DNA from: a virus
Taxonomy: Duplodnaviria; Caudoviricetes
DNA: 64,000 bases
Virus record (IMG/VR): IMGVR_UViG_3300028624_000003
Span: 1 to 64,000 of that record
Strand: one strand, 5' to 3'
Positions within the stretch are counted from its first letter, which is position 1. The number at the start of each line of letters is the position of its first letter. Under the pieces are notes generated by a model. That model had not been told where the DNA came from and did not search any database. It saw only the letters and a list, made by a program, of their open reading frames with translations. The position numbers and the translations under genes were made by a program. Below, in pieces: positions 736 to 63,697 of this stretch.

Positions 736-2856
736 ATGCCTGGTGTACAACGAGAAAGTTTACTTGCTTCTTACGTGGAAAATCAGCTGGCGTATTTGAA
801 AGCACTACATCCTCAAGTAACAGAAGAAAAATTGAGGGAGTTCGTACACAAGCAAGTACACGATAAATTAAAGCGACCCCGTGCTAAACTGATAGACCAT
901 CCATCTCCAGGAAATACCGAACTAAAAGAAGTCGATTTGCTCACACACATTCGAGCAAATCAATCACGCATCATTACCCCAAGTGGTACGATATACAAAT
1001 CGACGGATGAACTAGTGGCATTTGACAAACAGTTCATCGATGCGCTACGAAATCGACGAGACGTAGCAAAAAGAGAAATGCTATCGTTACTTGCGGAAGG
1101 AAAAACAAAAGAAGCAGCGCTCAAGAACTTCGTGCAAGCACTTAACAAAATTCTCGTTAACTCGATTATCGGTAGTAATGGGAATGACAAGAACGCAATG
1201 TACGACCTAGAAGCATTCGGTGGTGTTACATCGATGGCACGACATGGTGTCATCATGGCTTACGCATACGTCGAGAGATTTCTGACATCCAATTTTTATT
1301 TCCCAGACATGGAACACGTGATTAACTACATTGTTACTACCAAGAAGTTTGCACCGTCCAAAGAAGTCATGCGTGAGCTTACTGCCAAGTATCAAATGGT
1401 TAATCCACTCCCATGTGAAGTCGCTGATATGCTGTGCAACAGTCTTAATCAGTACACTTCGTCACATACCAGAAACTTGCACGAGCTGAATCGCATTCTA
1501 GAGTGTCTACCCCAGCACGAACTGACCTTCATCTACTACTCCAGAAACCTTTACAATCTTTTTACTACCAATGAGCATTTCTGGAAAAAGTGGATGAATG
1601 ATTTCTGGAACACGCACACCGAAGTCACGAAAGAAGAACTGGAGTATACAAGTCCTGCATCTTTACGGAAGATAGATGGCGATCTTCTTCAGGTTATGGC
1701 CACAATCCACTCTGATGACTTGAAGGGTGTCCAGATAAAGAAGATAGCCGAGAAAGACGAAAAGATGGCGACATTCCTTGCCGCAGTCGGTGCAAGAATG
1801 CAAGAAAAGCTTAGCGCACTTGACGATCTTTTTCAGGTGTTTCTACACAACAAGACTTTTATCAGTCATATACACTCACAGCGTGCGATCATTCGCAAGT
1901 GCGTAGCTATCTCAGATACTGACTCCGTACTGTTCACCACGAAGCACTTGGTTACGTGGTATCTCGGAGGTGAGTTCAAATTCACCAAAGAAATGTACAA
2001 CTGCAATGCACTTGTAGTTTATCTACTCACTAAGTCTCTAGCTACGATCATCGAGCATATGTCACGTGCACGAGGTGCAACAGGTGACAACGTCGGTATC
2101 ATTGAAATGAAAAATGAATACTTTTACCCAGTAATGATTAAGACCAATCTGGGTAAGCATTACGCTGGAGATATCACGATCCAGGAAGGTAACGTACTTA
2201 CCAAACCCAAGACTGACATCAAAGGCGTCTCTTTCATGTCATCTAACCTACCAAAGGTTACGCACAACTTCACCAAGAAGATTTTGAATCAGATCAAAGT
2301 AGATATGATGGAGAAAACTAAACTCTATCTATCCGACTACATCGTCGATACGTACAATTACGAACAGCAAATTTACAAATCACTGAAGTCAGGTGAATTT
2401 ACATACTTCCCAAATATCGCCATTCGCGATAAGGAAGAGTACAAGAAACCTGAATCTTCTGTATATGTAAACTACGAACTGTGGCAAAAAGTATTCGCGC
2501 ACAAGTACGGAGATATCAAGTTACCTACAAAGGTACCTATCATTCCGATTGATCCGAAAGCATTCCGAGATGCGAGATATCTTTCATGGCTTCAGGGCCA
2601 AAGCAAAGACATTCATGACAAGCTAGTTGCACACATGGATACACTTCCTAAGGGGAAGAAGATCGGAAGAATTCCTTTGTCTAGCGATCTGACGAAGGTC
2701 CCTGACGAACTCATTCCGATCATCATGATGCGACCTATCGTATTTAAGAATCTCCAGCCAGTGCAACTTGCACTAAAATCGATAGGTCTTGATCTGGGCA
2801 ATGCTAAGAAGTGTCCTCTAGTATCCGACTACTACTCGATCAATACCATTAACTAA
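736..2856 (+). CDS. family B DNA polymerase, polymerase domain (phiKZ gp50-like; exonuclease domain encoded separately)
   Basis: Motif B-like KILVNSIIG, motif C SDTDSVLF, KHY and IKG motifs; 706 aa with no evident Exo I-III motifs. Confidence 0.85.
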   Translation: MPGVQRESLLASYVENQLAYLKALHPQVTEEKLREFVHKQVHDKLKRPRAKLIDHPSPGNTELKEVDLLTHIRANQSRIITPSGTIYKSTDELVAFDKQFIDALRNRRDVAKREMLSLLAEGKTKEAALKNFVQALNKILVNSIIGSNGNDKNAMYDLEAFGGVTSMARHGVIMAYAYVERFLTSNFYFPDMEHVINYIVTTKKFAPSKEVMRELTAKYQMVNPLPCEVADMLCNSLNQYTSSHTRNLHELNRILECLPQHELTFIYYSRNLYNLFTTNEHFWKKWMNDFWNTHTEVTKEELEYTSPASLRKIDGDLLQVMATIHSDDLKGVQIKKIAEKDEKMATFLAAVGARMQEKLSALDDLFQVFLHNKTFISHIHSQRAIIRKCVAISDTDSVLFTTKHLVTWYLGGEFKFTKEMYNCNALVVYLLTKSLATIIEHMSRARGATGDNVGIIEMKNEYFYPVMIKTNLGKHYAGDITIQEGNVLTKPKTDIKGVSFMSSNLPKVTHNFTKKILNQIKVDMMEKTKLYLSDYIVDTYNYEQQIYKSLKSGEFTYFPNIAIRDKEEYKKPESSVYVNYELWQKVFAHKYGDIKLPTKVPIIPIDPKAFRDARYLSWLQGQSKDIHDKLVAHMDTLPKGKKIGRIPLSSDLTKVPDELIPIIMMRPIVFKNLQPVQLALKSIGLDLGNAKKCPLVSDYYSINTIN

Positions 2857-2910
2857 GACAAATGGGGAGGGTCGCAGGACCCTCCTATAACTACAAAATG
2901 GATAGTTATC

Positions 2911-3366
2911 GTGAGCAATTTTAACACAAATATAGGGATAACTGAGTACAAACTAGACGAACGTACCCACCATCTCACCGGATGGCTAGTCAATAGAAAG
3001 AGAATATCTGATGACTGGTCTGATCCTGTAGTAGATGGTGTACGGTATGATTCCAGCTACACTGATCGAATGTACTCACCTGAAAATGGTACAATTCACG
3101 TTAGGCTGGATACCGGGTATTTCGTACAACTCATAAAACCTAAAAAGGAACTTGACATGGGGATGCACAGCACACTCGGCATCCGTGAATATCGAAAGAA
3201 TCCAAATACTAAGATAGTCACGGGTGTCCTCTACAAGAAAGATGAGCGCACTGAGGAATGGAAAGAACTCGGTTCTTACACTTTCTTAGAGATAGCCAAA
3301 AAAGAACATCAGGACAAAACCACGGTGATCACCGAAAATGGTACGTACATTGACATACTCGAATAG
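2911..3366 (+). CDS. hypothetical protein
   Basis: 151-aa ORF between two hairpins; weak internal duplication (GITEYK.D..T..LTG / GIREYRK...T..VTG). Confidence 0.7.
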   Translation: MSNFNTNIGITEYKLDERTHHLTGWLVNRKRISDDWSDPVVDGVRYDSSYTDRMYSPENGTIHVRLDTGYFVQLIKPKKELDMGMHSTLGIREYRKNPNTKIVTGVLYKKDERTEEWKELGSYTFLEIAKKEHQDKTTVITENGTYIDILE

Positions 3367-4627: not shown

Positions 4628-4885
4628 TTATGTACGACACCAGATGGTGACACATTCTGAGTCTGATTTCCGTTTCATTGCTGATGTCGTGCGTTCAATA
4701 CTCAGACTATCTTTCTCAACTTCGTTTATAAACGCGCACACTACAGAGTTGGTCTTATCGGAAACCTTACCAAGTAAGATTAACCGATCCAACTGCTGTT
4801 GAGCAATTTCTGCAGTGTCGCGTATTAGCTGAGAGACCTGTCGAATACTGTCTGCCGACAATTGGGTGTCTGTGGGGTCGGTCAT
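4628..4885 (-). CDS. hypothetical protein
   Basis: 85-aa ORF with a GAGG RBS, in the lysis operon. Confidence 0.6.
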   Translation of the reverse strand: MTDPTDTQLSADSIRQVSQLIRDTAEIAQQQLDRLILLGKVSDKTNSVVCAFINEVEKDSLSIERTTSAMKRKSDSECVTIWCRT

Positions 4886-4903
4886 TTAGGCGATCCTCAT
4901 TCG

Positions 4904-5542
4904 TCATCCGACGATGGGTTTGTCGTCTCCCCCTTCAACTTTAGCATCCCCCGATCTATCGGTGCGACGACGCTGTTGCATGCTAGCATATTTCATACCT
5001 AGGGCACCACCAAAGAAGAAGCTGACCAGTATCAGTAGAAGGTTACTGTTTGTACTGATGATCTGGTTAACGTACTGTGCCTTGTCTTGCGGTATATTCA
5101 GGAAAGTCACAAGAAACATGAATAGGAAAATAAACGTAGTAACCACCAATGCATAGATGTAAATAAAGTTGGCTGCAAACCATGCACTTCTGATAGCAAA
5201 GTCGTCACCTGTTTTGGTAACTTCCAATGCGGTCGATAGTGCCGTAGACTGAAGATCTCGTGCGTTCTTTGTATCGCCTGCATCGAGCTCCATCTTTCGT
5301 ACCAAAAGACTTTCGAGTTCCTCTCGTTTGCTGGTGACGAGTTGTACTATCTTTTGGATTTGTTCTTCTGAGAGTTCAGTAGGTTCACCCGCTCCGTCAA
5401 CTAACGGAATGCCCGTACGTGTTTCAATGAACTCTTTCGTTTTTTGGATTCCCTCATCGGTCGCACCTTTAACAAGGTCGGAGAGAAAACCAATACCTCT
5501 CGATGCCAGAATCGCTAGTAACGGCGTGATGATCGGATCCAT
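4904..5542 (-). CDS. putative holin (3TM/GTA-holin-like)
   Basis: DTKNARDLQ motif, two C-terminal hydrophobic helices ending FFFGG, basic tail; adjacent to the endolysin. Confidence 0.65.
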   Translation of the reverse strand: MDPIITPLLAILASRGIGFLSDLVKGATDEGIQKTKEFIETRTGIPLVDGAGEPTELSEEQIQKIVQLVTSKREELESLLVRKMELDAGDTKNARDLQSTALSTALEVTKTGDDFAIRSAWFAANFIYIYALVVTTFIFLFMFLVTFLNIPQDKAQYVNQIISTNSNLLLILVSFFFGGALGMKYASMQQRRRTDRSGDAKVEGGDDKPIVG

Positions 5543-6126: not shown

Positions 6127-6782
6127 TAACCTCCCTGCTGCATTTTCATTATGTCAGCCGCAGACATCCCACCGAGAGATACTGTGTTTTGGTAAGGATC
6201 CGTCAGACACGGGATCCATTCAGTTGCGGTAGATCCTTTCTCGATTTTCATTCGAGTAAGTTTAGCAACCGCCAAAGCATCGCTGGTGATATGTTCGATA
6301 CAGAGGAATCCGCCTACGATGTCCGCAGGAGTCATGAACTTTTTCTGTACTCGGAGTTCTTTCGCGAACAATTGTTCAAACAAAACGGCCAATCCACTTT
6401 TTGCGGCATGATCGTTCAGTTGCTCTTGTTTCTGGAAAAACATCGTCATTCTCAGCGTGTTTTGTGCCAGAAAAGTCCCGCTAAAGACGTACTCGGTACT
6501 GGGCTCCAGAGGTAGCGAATAACTGGAGAATCCTGCGCCTTCAGTACTTCCGGTCATCAGGAAATAGGAGAAATCATCGATGATGAAATCATCCCGAAAG
6601 TTTATCACTTTATCGGTATTGATCCATCCACCGAGATTCATCATACCTGTGGAATTGTAGAGCAGATTCGGGTTTATGATTTTCGGTACAGTAGCGTCGT
6701 GCATGTCACTTCCATGTACACGCATTTCACCACCACCAGAAGAACCACCACTTCCTGCCCAGTTATTGGTACCCCAAGTCAT
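6126..6782 (-). CDS. tail-associated carbohydrate-binding-module protein
   Basis: NLLYNS...KIEKGSTATEW signature typical of phage tail CBM-like domains. Confidence 0.6.
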   Translation of the reverse strand: MTWGTNNWAGSGGSSGGGEMRVHGSDMHDATVPKIINPNLLYNSTGMMNLGGWINTDKVINFRDDFIIDDFSYFLMTGSTEGAGFSSYSLPLEPSTEYVFSGTFLAQNTLRMTMFFQKQEQLNDHAAKSGLAVLFEQLFAKELRVQKKFMTPADIVGGFLCIEHITSDALAVAKLTRMKIEKGSTATEWIPCLTDPYQNTVSLGGMSAADIMKMQQGG

Positions 6783-6794
6783 TTGGTACTCCTT

Positions 6795-7241
6795 CTAGAC
6801 GAAAAGAATGTGACCGAATGTGGGGTTATCTACTTCGTTTTCGTCGGTGTTCTTCACGACTACCCACACATATCGAGAAATCGGTACCGAAATCATTTTG
6901 TGCAACTTGGACTGGGGAGGGACTATGATGCTATCCGGCATCTTGAAAACCATTCCCCCACCAAGACGCGAATTGTTGATATTGTCCGGGTCTATATCAG
7001 CAAAAACACCCCGAATTTCATTGGGTATCTTTTTCCAGTTGGAATAGTACACGTCTATTGTGCAACCTTTTTCGGAAACACATTGAACAGACATCGATCC
7101 CATAACAGTGTTCGTCACTTGGAGATCGATTTCTTCAATCACCTTTTCAGCATGTCTGAGACGTACAAACCCTCCAGAGGGGTTCGTGTTCTCAAAAGAT
7201 TCTGGATTACCTTCGCCAAATGCACGAACATAAAAAGCCAT
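6795..7241 (-). CDS. hypothetical virion-associated protein
   Basis: ORF starting MAFYV after a GGAGG RBS, within the fibre cluster. Confidence 0.6.
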   Translation of the reverse strand: MAFYVRAFGEGNPESFENTNPSGGFVRLRHAEKVIEEIDLQVTNTVMGSMSVQCVSEKGCTIDVYYSNWKKIPNEIRGVFADIDPDNINNSRLGGGMVFKMPDSIIVPPQSKLHKMISVPISRYVWVVVKNTDENEVDNPTFGHILFV

Positions 7242-7347
7242 GGAGATCCTCCAGATAGTTACTGTTAGTATTACTTGAAATTGCATAACATAAAAGAGGT
7301 GGGACCCGAAGGACCCACCTCTTTATTAGACGTTGTAGTTTTTTGGA

Positions 7348-8034
7348 CTACGGGGTGACCATACCAGCGAGTTCGGCCGCGGTGGGACCAGGGATGAACA
7401 CGACGTGGTCATCACGGATGGCATGAGCCTTGAGGTCAGCCAGGTCAGCACGCTCGGTCTTCAGCATGAGGCACTTGGTGTCGCCATCGATAAGGACTTC
7501 GACGGTGTCGGAGACCTTGTGGTAGGGAGCGAGCATGGTGTCGAAGTTGATGTCCATCGACTCAGTTTCGCCGACCTTATCCCACTTGGAGCCGTCCCAG
7601 GTGTACTGAGCGGAACCAGCAGAGACGGTCGAGTCGGCGACGGCGTCGATGACGAAGATCAGACCGTTGCGCTGATCTCCAGCAAGGGCGTCACGAGCAG
7701 CGATGTCAGCGACGTACTTCACGGCACCAGCGACAACGCCGGTAGGAAGCATGGACATCGAGATCTTGCCAGTACCGTCGAGGGTGGCAACACCATCAGC
7801 GGCGCCTGCCTTGTCAAGCAGGGTCTTCTGGGCCTGAGACAAGGGGGCGTCGATCTTTGCGGGAAGCTCGGACCACTTCTTGACGCCGTCACCGATCTTG
7901 ACCACACCGGTGTCGGTGTTCATACCGAACTGGCCCTTGAAGAGCACCGCGTCATTGGCGGCCCAGCCAGCAGTGGTGTCGTTGGCGATACCAACGGCAG
8001 CGTGAAGAGTCTTCACATCGGGATTCAGAGGCAT
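7348..8034 (-). CDS. fibre/decoration protein with Mtd/hyaluronidase-like N-terminal domain
   Basis: WAANDAVLFKGQFGMNTDTGVVKIGDGVKKWSELP motif and GVATLDGTGK fibre motif; strongly C/G-ending codons. Confidence 0.7.
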   Translation of the reverse strand: MPLNPDVKTLHAAVGIANDTTAGWAANDAVLFKGQFGMNTDTGVVKIGDGVKKWSELPAKIDAPLSQAQKTLLDKAGAADGVATLDGTGKISMSMLPTGVVAGAVKYVADIAARDALAGDQRNGLIFVIDAVADSTVSAGSAQYTWDGSKWDKVGETESMDINFDTMLAPYHKVSDTVEVLIDGDTKCLMLKTERADLADLKAHAIRDDHVVFIPGPTAAELAGMVTP

Positions 8035-11332: not shown

Positions 11333-11415
11333 TCTCTAGCAACACTGAGCAGGTGGGAATCTCCCACCTGCTCATATTTTTTTAAACACATCTGTAAAAT
11401 ACTGAGCAAAATTAT

Positions 11416-11449
11416 ATCTAGATGAGGTTCTGCAGAACCTCATCTAGAT
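11416..11449. repeat. perfect 34-bp palindrome
   Basis: ATCTAGATGAGGTTCTGCAGAACCTCATCTAGAT equals its own reverse complement. Confidence 0.95.
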
Positions 11450-11640
11450 GATGGGTTCAGTCGTCATGACTACCTTCATTTCTTTTTGGTATAAATACTA
11501 CTTAGAGAGATTCCCTAGTGGGAATCTCTCATTGGTGTATATTGTACATTTACTCTTTGTTTGTATTCCTCCCCACCCAACACTAGCACTATGCACTATG
11601 ACTACCCCTCCTTCCTCTACTACTTTATTGAAGAGGAAAT

Positions 11641-11790
11641 AAGGATGTCGAGTACTCCGTACTCTCCTCTTAATACAAACAGACTTCGTCTGTCTCTGTG
11701 GTTTTCGAGGGTTCTTCCCCCTTCTCTTACGAGAAGAGTGGAGTAGGTGTGTTTACATTTTATTACTGCAGATGTAAATTTTTACAACAA
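11641..11790. repeat. dispersed hairpin-rich element, copy 1
   Basis: 11641-11694 is identical (54 bp) to 58986-59039; diverged similarity continues for ~100 bp. Confidence 0.9.
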
Positions 11791-11912
11791 TACAAAATGT
11801 TAATTAGATTAATGAATAAGCTCACAATGAGACACTCACGTGTCTCGTGTATTCTAATAGTCGTCCTTGCGATAGTATGCATTCGATCGTAAATTATGGA
11901 GGTATGCCACTC

Positions 11913-58985: not shown

Positions 58986-59142
58986 AAGGATGTCGAGTAC
59001 TCCGTACTCTCCTCTTAATACAAACAGACTTCGTCTGTCGCTGGGGTTTTCGAGGAGTTTCCAAGTTCTCCTCTTCTCGTGAGAGAAGAGTCGAGGTAGG
59101 TGCTTTCGCATTTTATAATTGTACATGTAAAAAATTACAACA
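58986..59142. repeat. dispersed hairpin-rich element, copy 2
   Basis: 54 bp identical to 11641-11694, same orientation. Confidence 0.9.
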
Positions 59143-61448: not shown

Positions 61449-62273
61449 CTATACTGCGTCCATGATTCTGGCACGACGTCTTTCAGGATCGAGTATGGTA
61501 CTGGCACCATTGAAAGCTCGCATGAGGTCGTTGTAACGATCTTCCTGGTCTGCATACGACTCACATATGCGCTTCATCTCGCCGAGCTGCTGACCACCTT
61601 CAAGAAATGCCAGTTCGGTTTTGATGATCAGTGTGTTATAGATGTACGACTTTACCGCACATGTCACGAGGTCTACGAGAGGCATTATTGCTTGCTCGTT
61701 GATGTTCGTGAATTCTTCGTCATACCCCAGCCGACACTCCAGTATCCAGTCTACATTCTGCAGCTGAGAAATGTTGTTGGGACTGAGCTGTACCAAGTTC
61801 CCAGAACGGAGTATCGGCGTAGGAAGTTCCATCACTCCTGAGTAGGTATGTGAACCCAAAATCTGTGAATTGAGTGCGTCCATGGTGGTACCAGAGAGTA
61901 CACTACCTGGGCCTCCCGATGGAGCTTGCAATCCGTCGTACAGTGCATACGGAAACCGCAACCCTAGTACTTTGGTAATTGGCTGATGCTCTCGTGCTTC
62001 CGGTGGTACACGATAAAGACTGAAGGTCATACTGTTTCCCCAGATAAAGGGAGATGGGGTGGATGATGGTTCTACCCATCCACTCTTCAGTACAATATCC
62101 TTACGTCGTCCACCCATCAGATTGCAGTCTTCCAATACTCGAGGAATGATCACCTCGTTGAGTATGGCGTCTGTCAATTTCATATTGGGACCGACAGGAA
62201 ATGCTTTCAATAGAATCTGTTCGGGGATAGAGTAGGTGATCTTTCTCATACACGCTTCAATTGCATTATGCAT
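61449..62273 (-). CDS. virion structural protein (putative)
   Basis: 274 aa with a GGAGG RBS; NAI...I...IP..IL..AF N-terminus resembles phiKZ-like structural proteins. Confidence 0.6.
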   Translation of the reverse strand: MHNAIEACMRKITYSIPEQILLKAFPVGPNMKLTDAILNEVIIPRVLEDCNLMGGRRKDIVLKSGWVEPSSTPSPFIWGNSMTFSLYRVPPEAREHQPITKVLGLRFPYALYDGLQAPSGGPGSVLSGTTMDALNSQILGSHTYSGVMELPTPILRSGNLVQLSPNNISQLQNVDWILECRLGYDEEFTNINEQAIMPLVDLVTCAVKSYIYNTLIIKTELAFLEGGQQLGEMKRICESYADQEDRYNDLMRAFNGASTILDPERRRARIMDAV

Positions 62274-62340
62274 CGTATTCCTCCAATGCAGTAGGTTCTA
62301 TAGGATTGACCCTTATCTGTAAATCCGTCAACATTTCGAG

Positions 62341-62358
62341 TATACATTACAAACGTGA
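62341..62358 (+). promoter_or_regulatory. phiKZ-type early promoter preceding a non-coding unit
   Basis: TATACATTAC-AAACG-TGA. Confidence 0.7.
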
Positions 62359-63369
62359 TAGGATGTATCAATTTGTTGGCAGTAAAATTGTACATGCTGT
62401 GCTAATGGTGTGCGCAAACTGCCAAGCATGCATGAGTCCTCTCTGACGACCATGCTGGTGGCTGAGACTCCTACATCTCAGCCATCTACTATAGTTCAGG
62501 CTGGTTCCCGCTATCCACGTCCAAGTCCCTAGCGCACATCAGCGCTTTGACGCCGGCGGTATTATCGTCCTTAACACGGAAATGAATATTGACCGATGAC
62601 GTGCTCGGCTATCGCCACGGCCGGGAACCAGTCTGACATGACCGGACCAGTGTCTTAACCAGTTAATCCACCTTGCGTCATGGCGTGTCTCCTTAAACCC
62701 CCTACCACGCAACAAATTCTACTAGATCACGTACAGAGATATCTCTCCCCTCTGTATATCGCAATCGCAACCGCACTGCGTGAGACGCGATCATTGGTGA
62801 CCTAGTGACAGGTGAAATTCCTGTCCTCGATAACGTCGGCAAAATGCGGACATAAATCGATGAGAATGGGATAAACGTCCACGGTTGCACAGAGACGCTG
62901 GTCCGGTCAAACTTTAGTGGTTTATCCTGGTACTCGCTGCCGCCCTCGCACTCCCCACAAGGAGCACCCGTAAAGGGATTCGGCCGCAGCCTTGCCAGGT
63001 TTGTGAGATGCCCAGCCAAGCGAGCACATCGCTCCATTCTTGGCGATATTAACCCAGATTGTGTAGCACAGGACCGCGAAGCGGTGTCCATGATCGTAGA
63101 CACTTCCATCGACTACATCATGGCGGATTATCCGTTTGAACCGATTTCGTTAGCCTACAGAGAAATGGTTGGCGAGTCGACAACATCGTCGTTCGCAGTG
63201 TCGAATGTCCGCGTCGATCAGCAGCTCGGTGAAGCCGGGCGTTAGCTCCGGCGGGACAATTCGGCTATGGGGGAATAATTTTAGATGGATTACCCCGTAG
63301 TCTACGCACTACCCGGACGAAATAATGGGCCTTCTAGGACCGGGAGCATGCCAGCTCCCGGTCCATTTT
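62358..63369 (+). ncRNA. candidate ~1-kb highly structured non-coding RNA
   Basis: No credible ORF; 15- and 17-bp long-range helices; many hairpins; mismatches resolve as G-U on the + strand; bounded by a promoter and a terminator. Confidence 0.75.
63337..63369 (+). terminator. intrinsic terminator
   Basis: GGACCGGGAGC/GCTCCCGGTCC 11-bp stem followed by ATTTT. Confidence 0.8.
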
Positions 63370-63415
63370 CCTAGCCTTATGTTCTTTTAAATTTTTGACA
63401 GCAGAGGAATATGAG

Positions 63416-63697
63416 ATGAACCGTATCGACGACACGTTTCTTACATTTCCTGAATTCGTGAAGCACATGAAAAAATTGGAAGGAGTCGACATCATCGACT
63501 ACATACCTGAAGAATTCGTGACTGACATTCATGTCATGCAACTATTCCCCAGATACAAAGAACCGTACTCTGTACGGAACCCCAACAAAACCATAGAAGA
63601 TATGATAAGAGATCGAGTGATTCCTGTAGTAGTAGCATTTGTGCACCTACCTAAGACACACTACGTAATGTTTTCTGAGCTTACAGGAACTGCGTAA
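63416..63697 (+). CDS. hypothetical protein
   Basis: GAGGA RBS; 93 aa. Confidence 0.65.
   Translation: MNRIDDTFLTFPEFVKHMKKLEGVDIIDYIPEEFVTDIHVMQLFPRYKEPYSVRNPNKTIEDMIRDRVIPVVVAFVHLPKTHYVMFSELTGTA

Follow-up and report, generated by a model that had tools for sequence, protein, structure and literature searches.

What does a phage genome carry in a stretch of ~1.1 kb that lies between two protein genes, opens with a promoter and closes with a terminator, and holds no credible gene of its own? The question is raised by positions 62274-63415 of the window analyzed here, which covers the initial 64 kb of an IMG/VR record of 220,982 bp with direct terminal repeats (IMGVR_UViG_3300028624_000003; the genome is called W below). 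Because its upstream neighbor belongs to the phiKZ gp042 / PhiPA3 gp037 family, this uncultured phage is, as judged from sequence, a distant relative of the nucleus-forming (phiKZ-like) jumbo phages. A preliminary description of the locus had proposed one structured non-coding RNA of ~1 kb, transcribed from an early promoter and possibly the first of a new class of large jumbo-phage RNA. Our analysis points to a smaller object. We consider 62351-62940 a candidate for a new stable, highly structured non-coding RNA of ~590 nt, either stand-alone or processed, that belongs to an RNA-gene locus of the phage, and we put the probability of this reading at roughly 55%. The earlier interpretation was half right, and the core that it contained makes a good candidate for a large phage RNA not described before.

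The folding evidence is concentrated in this core. The stretch from 62341 to 63369 folds at -398 kcal/mol, with a z-score against dinucleotide shuffles of -8.8 on the + strand and -4.3 on the - strand, which bears out the earlier claim of exceptional predicted structure, and every stem listed in the preliminary description is present in the minimum free energy (MFE) fold of this stretch. An inverted-repeat search also recovered the arms of the long-range helices – 94% complementary for the 17-nt arms and 93% for the 15-nt arms – along with those of the terminator. Inverted repeats with arms of 15 bp or more, no more than one mismatch and a spacing of 30-400 nt number only eight in the 221-kb genome, and the adjacent 15- and 17-bp helices account for two of them; their arms have no other occurrence in the genome, and the candidate RNA is single-copy, with no paralog in W. 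When the stretch is divided, the excess folding sits in 62351-62940, and the z-score of 62941-63300 is only -2.1. In a composition-regressed scan of 334 + strand windows, the core lay at -3.2 standard deviations and ranked third; sliding z-scores over 300 nt cut across the long helices and are hence weakly informative. The predicted architecture of the core is a closing helix around three 5' hairpins and two domains, each clamped by a near-perfect helix of 15 or 17 bp (Table 1). The notion of a single ~1-kb RNA in which all stems carry weight did not survive, as the last ~360 nt fold ordinarily, are variably deleted and hold the 3' two thirds of a small open reading frame (ORF).

Table 1. Predicted features of the locus and its flanking genes, in coordinates of the window. 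L002 and L117 are related sequences introduced in the text.
Feature	Position	Strand	Details
Structured core, candidate RNA proper	62351..62940	+	MFE -220 kcal/mol; z -8.3 on +, -3.5 on -
5' arm of predicted closing helix, partner 62919-62937	62355..62369	+	RNAalifold consensus of W and L002
Hairpin H1, G-U-rich	62372..62430	+	five G-U pairs in consensus; + strand only
11-bp hairpin H3	62457..62486	+	-18.6 kcal/mol, z -6.0
Domain A, closed by 15-bp helix 62496-510/62622-36	62496..62636	+	z -5.3 on +, -2.5 on -
Domain B, multibranch, closed by 17-bp helix 62639-55/62893-909	62639..62909	+	z -5.2
Phage promoter motif copy, TATACATTAC-N5-TGA	62341..62358	+	1 of 19 + strand copies; position weight matrix score 25 bits
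Intrinsic-terminator-like hairpin, 11 bp (9 G-C), then ATTTT	63337..63369	+	arms 63337-47/63354-64
Variable 3' segment, ordinary folding	62941..63298	+	z -2.1; missing in L002
Gene remnant: final 62 codons of an orphan ORF of 98 aa	63060..63245	+	in W, inside an 80-aa GTG-start ORF without a clear Shine-Dalgarno (SD) sequence
DUF7484 gene (phiKZ gp042 / PhiPA3 gp037 homolog)	61449..62273	-	divergent neighbor, synteny anchor; PHROG 3179, E 4e-38
First downstream protein gene, 93 aa, own SD	63416..63697	+	also next after the locus in L002 and L117

Close relatives separate the core from what follows it. The locus is known from four sequences that are at least 93% alike: W and three others designated L064, L117 and L002. 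L064, a metagenome contig of 1,075 nt, has a core identical to that of W and carries 367 extra nucleotides between 63059 and 63060. L117 (7.6 kb) shares the 367-nt insertion; its identity to W is 98.4% before the insertion point, as far as 63059, and 94.7% after it. L002 (9.3 kb), with flanks that are 96-97% identical, lacks 62515-62596 and 62941-63298, and its unit is thereby shrunk to core plus terminator, with a z-score of its own of -7.0. The 367-nt segment of L117 and L064 provides an SD (AAAGGAGGT), a TTG start seven bases further on and a signal-peptide-like N-terminus, in which two arginines and a hydrophobic run precede Ser-Ala-His-Gly, and it thereby completes an ORF of 98 aa. This ORF had no Pfam match, no usable Atlas match and two weak, repeat-like matches among 1.8 billion representative proteins; as these searches gave no relatives, its placement in a known family was dropped.

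These sequences are most simply read with the L117 form as the older one: the deletion in W would have taken the start of the small gene, and the larger deletion in L002 all of it. Because the gene of the L117 form would have lost its start in W and everything in L002, the 3' third of the stretch is best read as a gene remnant. In the older form the core would have been co-transcribed with the small ORF, and the transcript of W would pass through the remnant before ending at the hairpin 63337-63364. By alignment of the four forms, the unit that survives in every one of them is promoter, core and terminator.

The preliminary description had placed a + strand unit between promoter and terminator, and both elements are indeed found on that strand. 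The genome has 19 copies of the motif TATAYATTAC-N5-TGA on the + strand and a single copy on the - strand. Scored with a weight matrix that was made from the 18 other sites, the one at 62341 reaches 25 bits, and just 27 + strand positions genome-wide exceed 20 bits. An SD and an ORF follow 33-93 nt downstream in 17 of the 19 + strand copies; behind the copy at 62341 nothing comparable follows for more than 700 nt. The short leaders of these 17 copies match those reported for phiKZ, which are mostly 31-40 nt long, and the early promoters of phiKZ, 28-32 in number, share a consensus that is AT-rich (PMC8244752). Equivalent sites in the closer relatives all lie at the same place and score 18-23 bits. 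As in a phiKZ-type early promoter regulon, a repeated AT-rich motif thus stands on the + strand directly upstream of the unit. Its likeness to the phiKZ early consensus suggests that the 62341 motif acts as an early promoter for the virion RNA polymerase (RNAP), and transcription of the + strand would start from this phage-specific site. At the other end, the terminator stem is kept in L002 and L117. Its 6-nt loop reads ATGCCA in W (63337-63364) and TGGCAT, the reverse complement, in L117 (2252-2279), with identical stems, and the whole palindrome appears to have been flipped at the DNA level between the two.

The + strand is favored by the orientation of promoter and terminator, by the asymmetry of the z-scores, by H1, which folds at -21.4 kcal/mol on the + strand and -12.3 on the - strand, and by H3, where a G-U pair of W is G-C in L002 and L117. 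The preliminary description had based its choice of strand on G-U wobbles in the long helices. That argument holds for H1, which depends on its five G-U pairs and does not form on the - strand, but not for the 17-bp helix, whose lone G-U is a U-U in L117.

Substitution patterns are consistent with a fold that is being kept. Relative to W, L002 differs at 5.0% and L117 at 1.7% of aligned core sites, compared with 7.7% and 2.9% at third codon positions of the flanking genes (first and second positions, 1.4-2.4% and 0%). Pooled, the core has 35 changes in 1,090 comparisons and the third positions 105 in 1,536, by our estimate about four standard errors apart, although this figure overstates independence because the L002 and L117 comparisons share the W branch. 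When the 26 substitutions of L002 were reverted and re-dealt at random with the same base changes, the folding energy went from -190 to -166 +/- 8 kcal/mol; the real L002 folds at -195 kcal/mol, a value matched by none of 70 random substitution sets. The consensus of W and L002 contains two double compensatory changes and five switches between G-U and G-C or between U-A and U-G, in a structure that was fitted to both sequences. A 93-nt stretch within domain B is identical between the two, and G62355A in L117 disrupts the outermost pair of the predicted closing helix.

Several results weigh against a conserved, functional RNA. The genome as a whole is structure-prone: 13 random 590-nt windows gave a mean z-score of -3.0 +/- 1.7 and a minimum of -6.2, and one coding window (95201) lies further out than the core on the composition-regressed scale. 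The loss of 82 nt from the interior of domain A (62515-62596) in L002 indicates that part of this domain is dispensable. The ten substitutions of L117 gave a folding energy no better than that of random sets, and on the MFE structure of W itself, substitutions at paired sites break the pair in 6 of 13 cases in L002 and in 6 of 8 in L117. The preservation of folding energy is equally strong on the - strand, and the test therefore indicates that a fold is kept but not which strand matters. The promoter of L002 is weaker, with two changes within the decamer and a score of 19 bits. Searches of ~100 fetched loci with the core, by blastn and nhmmer, found no homolog beyond genomes at least 93% identical, and a covariance model of domain B (R1) was negative in 48 relatives' loci, four of them also searched with filters off, with generic hairpins as the only matches. 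Covariation, which the preliminary description had proposed as a check, cannot be demonstrated from the available copies, among which only L002 and L117 are distinct, diverged sequences. Because all known copies are nearly identical, the evidence for the candidate RNA falls short of proof.

Some of these results would fit decaying DNA. The locus could be a former island of RNA genes or small genes behind a promoter, in which deletions of 82, 357 and 367 nt mark erosion and the long helices are recent inverted duplications. Three indel variants occur in four close genomes; W lacks any tRNA where relatives have an island at this position; homologs are limited to close relatives; and the substitutions in L117 break pairs predicted in W. 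The rate and energy tests weaken this explanation, since the core changes more slowly than the neighboring third codon positions and random substitutions would cost ~24-29 kcal/mol, none of which L002 has lost. Relics of tRNAs or proteins were undetectable with ARAGORN and tblastx, and the helix arms are spared by all of the large deletions. We regard erosion as unlikely.

The order of elements in L117 and L064 suggests another alternative, in which the core is a very long 5' leader that acts in cis – on stability, processing or translation – for the early mRNA of a small secreted-type protein, intact in these two and without a start in the mRNA of W. There the promoter is followed by the core, ~490 nt that include most of the 367-nt insertion, the SD and TTG start, the 98-aa ORF and the terminator, and no terminator-like hairpin separates core from ORF. 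L002 weakens this account because it keeps the core without the ORF: the terminator stands right behind the core and the substitutions are of the kind that preserve the fold. A leader of this length would also depart from the short ones of the other 17 promoter copies and of phiKZ, and the protein that it would serve is an orphan without relatives. We find a leader rather improbable.

A DNA-level element – a replication or recombination site, a protein-binding array on paired inverted repeats or a pair of insertions resembling miniature inverted-repeat transposable elements (MITEs) – seems very unlikely, for although both long helices share a GCTGGT(T)CC / GGA(A)CCAG core when read from their arms, energy preservation is symmetric between the strands and the flipped terminator of L117 speaks for palindrome-mediated DNA events at the locus, it is weakened by the strand asymmetry of the folding excess (core z -8.3 versus -3.5, and the difference for H1 given above) and by the uniqueness of the arms, which represent no repeat family, while promoter and terminator frame the unit on the same strand.

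The candidate RNA thus remains the preferred reading, and its identity was searched for at both the protein and the RNA level. The claim that ~1.1 kb is free of genes stands: the longest + strand ORFs between 62274 and 63415 encode 61 and 80 aa, no ORF in this interval matched Pfam or PHROG or has a homolog, and the first 600 nt hold no credible gene. An ORF of 135 aa lies on the - strand at 62702-63109, antisense to the candidate RNA. It is present in the protein collection from the W contig only, a search of 5.8 billion proteins returned no match other than the ORF itself, and its reading frame is interrupted in L002; the gene call in the public record is probably spurious. A pseudogene of relatives' proteins was rejected by a negative tblastx search against all of the relatives' loci.

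The earlier statement that the RNA belongs to no known family was likewise upheld: Rfam 15, whose families include GOLLD, ROOL, OLE, transfer-messenger RNA (tmRNA), RNase P, group I and II introns, 6S and Y RNA-like RNAs, gave zero matches at gathering scores over the whole window, and at E <=10 the sole match in 62200-63500 was a chance miRNA on the - strand (16.9 bits), with the same outcome for L064. ARAGORN found no tRNA or tmRNA relic in 62200-63500 at thresholds of 95, 90 or 85%, and a tRNA relic was dropped on this ground; at 80% it made a single tmRNA-like call, at a level where the genome gives 200 calls. A group I or II intron was rejected on the non-coding flanks and the lack of an Rfam intron match. 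The 367-nt insertion of L064 and L117 was also rejected as an intron, since it ends in C rather than G and lacks a GUGYG start, and a MITE-like repeat family was dropped because neither pair of helix arms recurs elsewhere in the genome. Distant blastn and megablast searches with the locus and the surrounding 9 kb found nothing in 50,697 phage records, searches for related loci with single flanking proteins found nothing and an exact 28-mer of domain B was absent from IMG/VR. A degenerate 18-base pattern gave 43 matches in metagenomes, of which L064 alone was real.

More distant relatives place the locus in context. The genome of W (46.9% G+C) holds no tRNA gene and no tmRNA gene according to ARAGORN. 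The anchor protein has tblastn matches in 188 phiKZ-like phages at ~29% identity, is assigned to the PhiPA3 gp037 family by the PhiPA3 annotation and carries PF24302 in all relatives. Neighborhoods of the anchor gene were taken from relatives in which the protein is 63, 60 or 55% identical and from 44 IMG/VR contigs down to 25%; none of those fetched, across 63-25% anchor identity, had nucleotide similarity to the core. In three relatives with a 55% identical anchor (L007, L008 and L010), a structured leader of 350 nt comes next after the promoter site and then 4-8 tRNAs and a tmRNA (119-121 bits), all on the strand of the promoter. The leader is 97-98% conserved in a clade that is otherwise 88-95% identical, with too few changes for covariation, and unannotated spacers within these islands have z-scores of -5.9 and -6.2. 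In the 63% relative (L003) the promoter precedes a 213-aa ORF and 858 gene-free nucleotides with a z-score of -7.3 (-2.3 on the other strand), and in L005 it precedes 580 nt of hairpins with z-scores of about -9 on both strands (-8.8 for the gap). Cultured phiKZ-like phages have ordinary small genes at this position. Judged by these gene contents, the position is, within the uncultured clade, an RNA-gene locus with fast-changing content. The locus in W would be the RNA-gene locus of that phage, equivalent to the one from which the same promoter position appears to drive tRNAs, tmRNA and unannotated structured spacers in relatives.

Some details of these islands are of interest in themselves. 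The island of L008 (844-5100) encodes tRNA-Gln, Thr, Gly, Pro, Lys, Arg, Met and Ser and a full-length tmRNA, which was found with Rfam and missed by ARAGORN. Its spacers 1922-2685 and 2762-3129 and its leader 4726-5075 have z-scores of -5 to -6 on the strand of the island and match no family. An HNH endonuclease gene is inserted in the island of L007 and absent from that of L008. The 213-aa ORF of L003 (5234-5875, - strand) has faint matches only, to Ribonuc_2-5A (E 0.02) and to one PHROG (E 0.002).

How such an RNA might be made and used can be sketched by analogy. In rRNA operons and in the early transcripts of phages, RNase III acts on processing stalks, which are long, near-perfect helices whose two arms lie on either side of a structured RNA domain. 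The two clamps of the core may serve the same purpose, being cut by a double-strand-specific nuclease of RNase III type so that the domains are released, much as rRNA and phage tRNA operons are processed, and on this comparison the RNA is probably trimmed at the long clamps. The likeness is that the long near-perfect helices of W flank structured domains; the difference is that 15-17 bp is at the short end for substrates, and cleavage here is predicted. The product would act in the takeover of RNA or translation early in infection. Nucleus-forming jumbo phages shield their DNA, and the first minutes of infection are thus contested largely at the RNA level. On a bolder proposal, nucleus-forming phages would have a large stable RNA of a new class, made by the injected virion RNAP at the start of infection from the locus where relatives have a tRNA/tmRNA operon; cutting of its two clamps would release domains that interfere with host translation, the decay of RNA or defences directed against RNA before phage proteins exist. 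We consider this proposal doubtful, and the preliminary wording of a new class is unsupported as it was written, given four sequences at least 93% alike.

Known phage RNAs offer several points of comparison. GOLLD and ROOL are often found beside tRNA genes. They are large 'ornate' non-coding RNAs of phages and prophages that form RNA-only multimers by cryo-EM (bioRxiv 10.1101/2024.12.08.627333 / PMC12286853; ROOL was described in PMC5737381). The candidate RNA shares with them a size class of 0.5-0.8 kb, a multi-domain architecture and a phage-borne gene, and its syntenic locus in relatives is a tRNA/tmRNA island. It differs in lacking an Rfam match at E <=10, and is thus not a member of either family; in residing in a phiKZ-like phage rather than in Firmicutes-type prophages; and in having two near-perfect clamps of 15-17 bp and, as yet, four near-identical sequences in place of a covariation-backed consensus. 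RNAs C and D of T4 (species 1 and 2) are stable RNAs of ~120-140 nt that lie in the tRNA gene cluster, are co-transcribed with the tRNAs and are cut from the precursor. They resemble the candidate in kind, as stable RNAs of phage tRNA loci, and differ in that the candidate is ~590 nt long and its phage has no tRNA genes. The resemblance to GOLLD, ROOL and the T4 tRNA-cluster RNAs is one of kind and not of family.

Also similar in outward form is a large non-coding element of elevated GC content in RaK2 (NC_019526.1), which has three copies (6831-7460, 191350-192030 and 279700-280400). Like the candidate, it is GC-elevated and free of ORFs over 0.5-0.7 kb, is bounded by a promoter and a terminator, belongs to a jumbo phage and is not in Rfam. 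The two are set apart by sequence profile and by copy number, three against one: an nhmmer profile of the three RaK2 copies found nothing at E <=10 in the W genome or in the relatives' loci, and the R1 model found nothing in RaK2. The first RaK2 copy overlaps an annotated - strand ORF, ORF014w (6672-7325), which may be a mis-annotation. Large non-coding RNAs are not known from nucleus-forming jumbo phages. Transcriptome papers on phiKZ and 201phi2-1 report small RNAs only (PMC11512511, PMC8244752); one such small RNA sits just upstream of a tRNA (PMC11512511).

Other structured or repeated regions were observed elsewhere in the W genome. Of the thirteen long-range inverted repeats that measure 14 bp or more, three lie together at 130025-130550 and have a common TTTCTCGAGGAT core, which makes this a further site of unusual long-range complementarity. 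A 514-nt intergenic region at 11333-11846 is dense in perfect hairpins and ranks second in structure among the + strand windows scanned; a part of it, 11664-11789, recurs at ~59009-59141 with 80% identity. Two copies of the promoter, at 95075-95560 and 212555-213000, have identical flanks. The small ORFs behind them (143 and 127 aa) are paralogs, and the 143-aa ORF lies within the most structured + strand window (GC 0.54).

If the locus is decaying DNA, its value would be mainly that of a warning, as shuffle-based z-scores of -3 to -6 are ordinary in this genome. If the candidate is real, a folded RNA of 0.6 kb, transcribed from an early-type promoter at the position of the relatives' RNA-gene island, would be a concrete object to test. 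Relatives' islands hold unannotated structured spacers and a phage tmRNA at the same place, and the whole locus may be a source of new phage RNAs.

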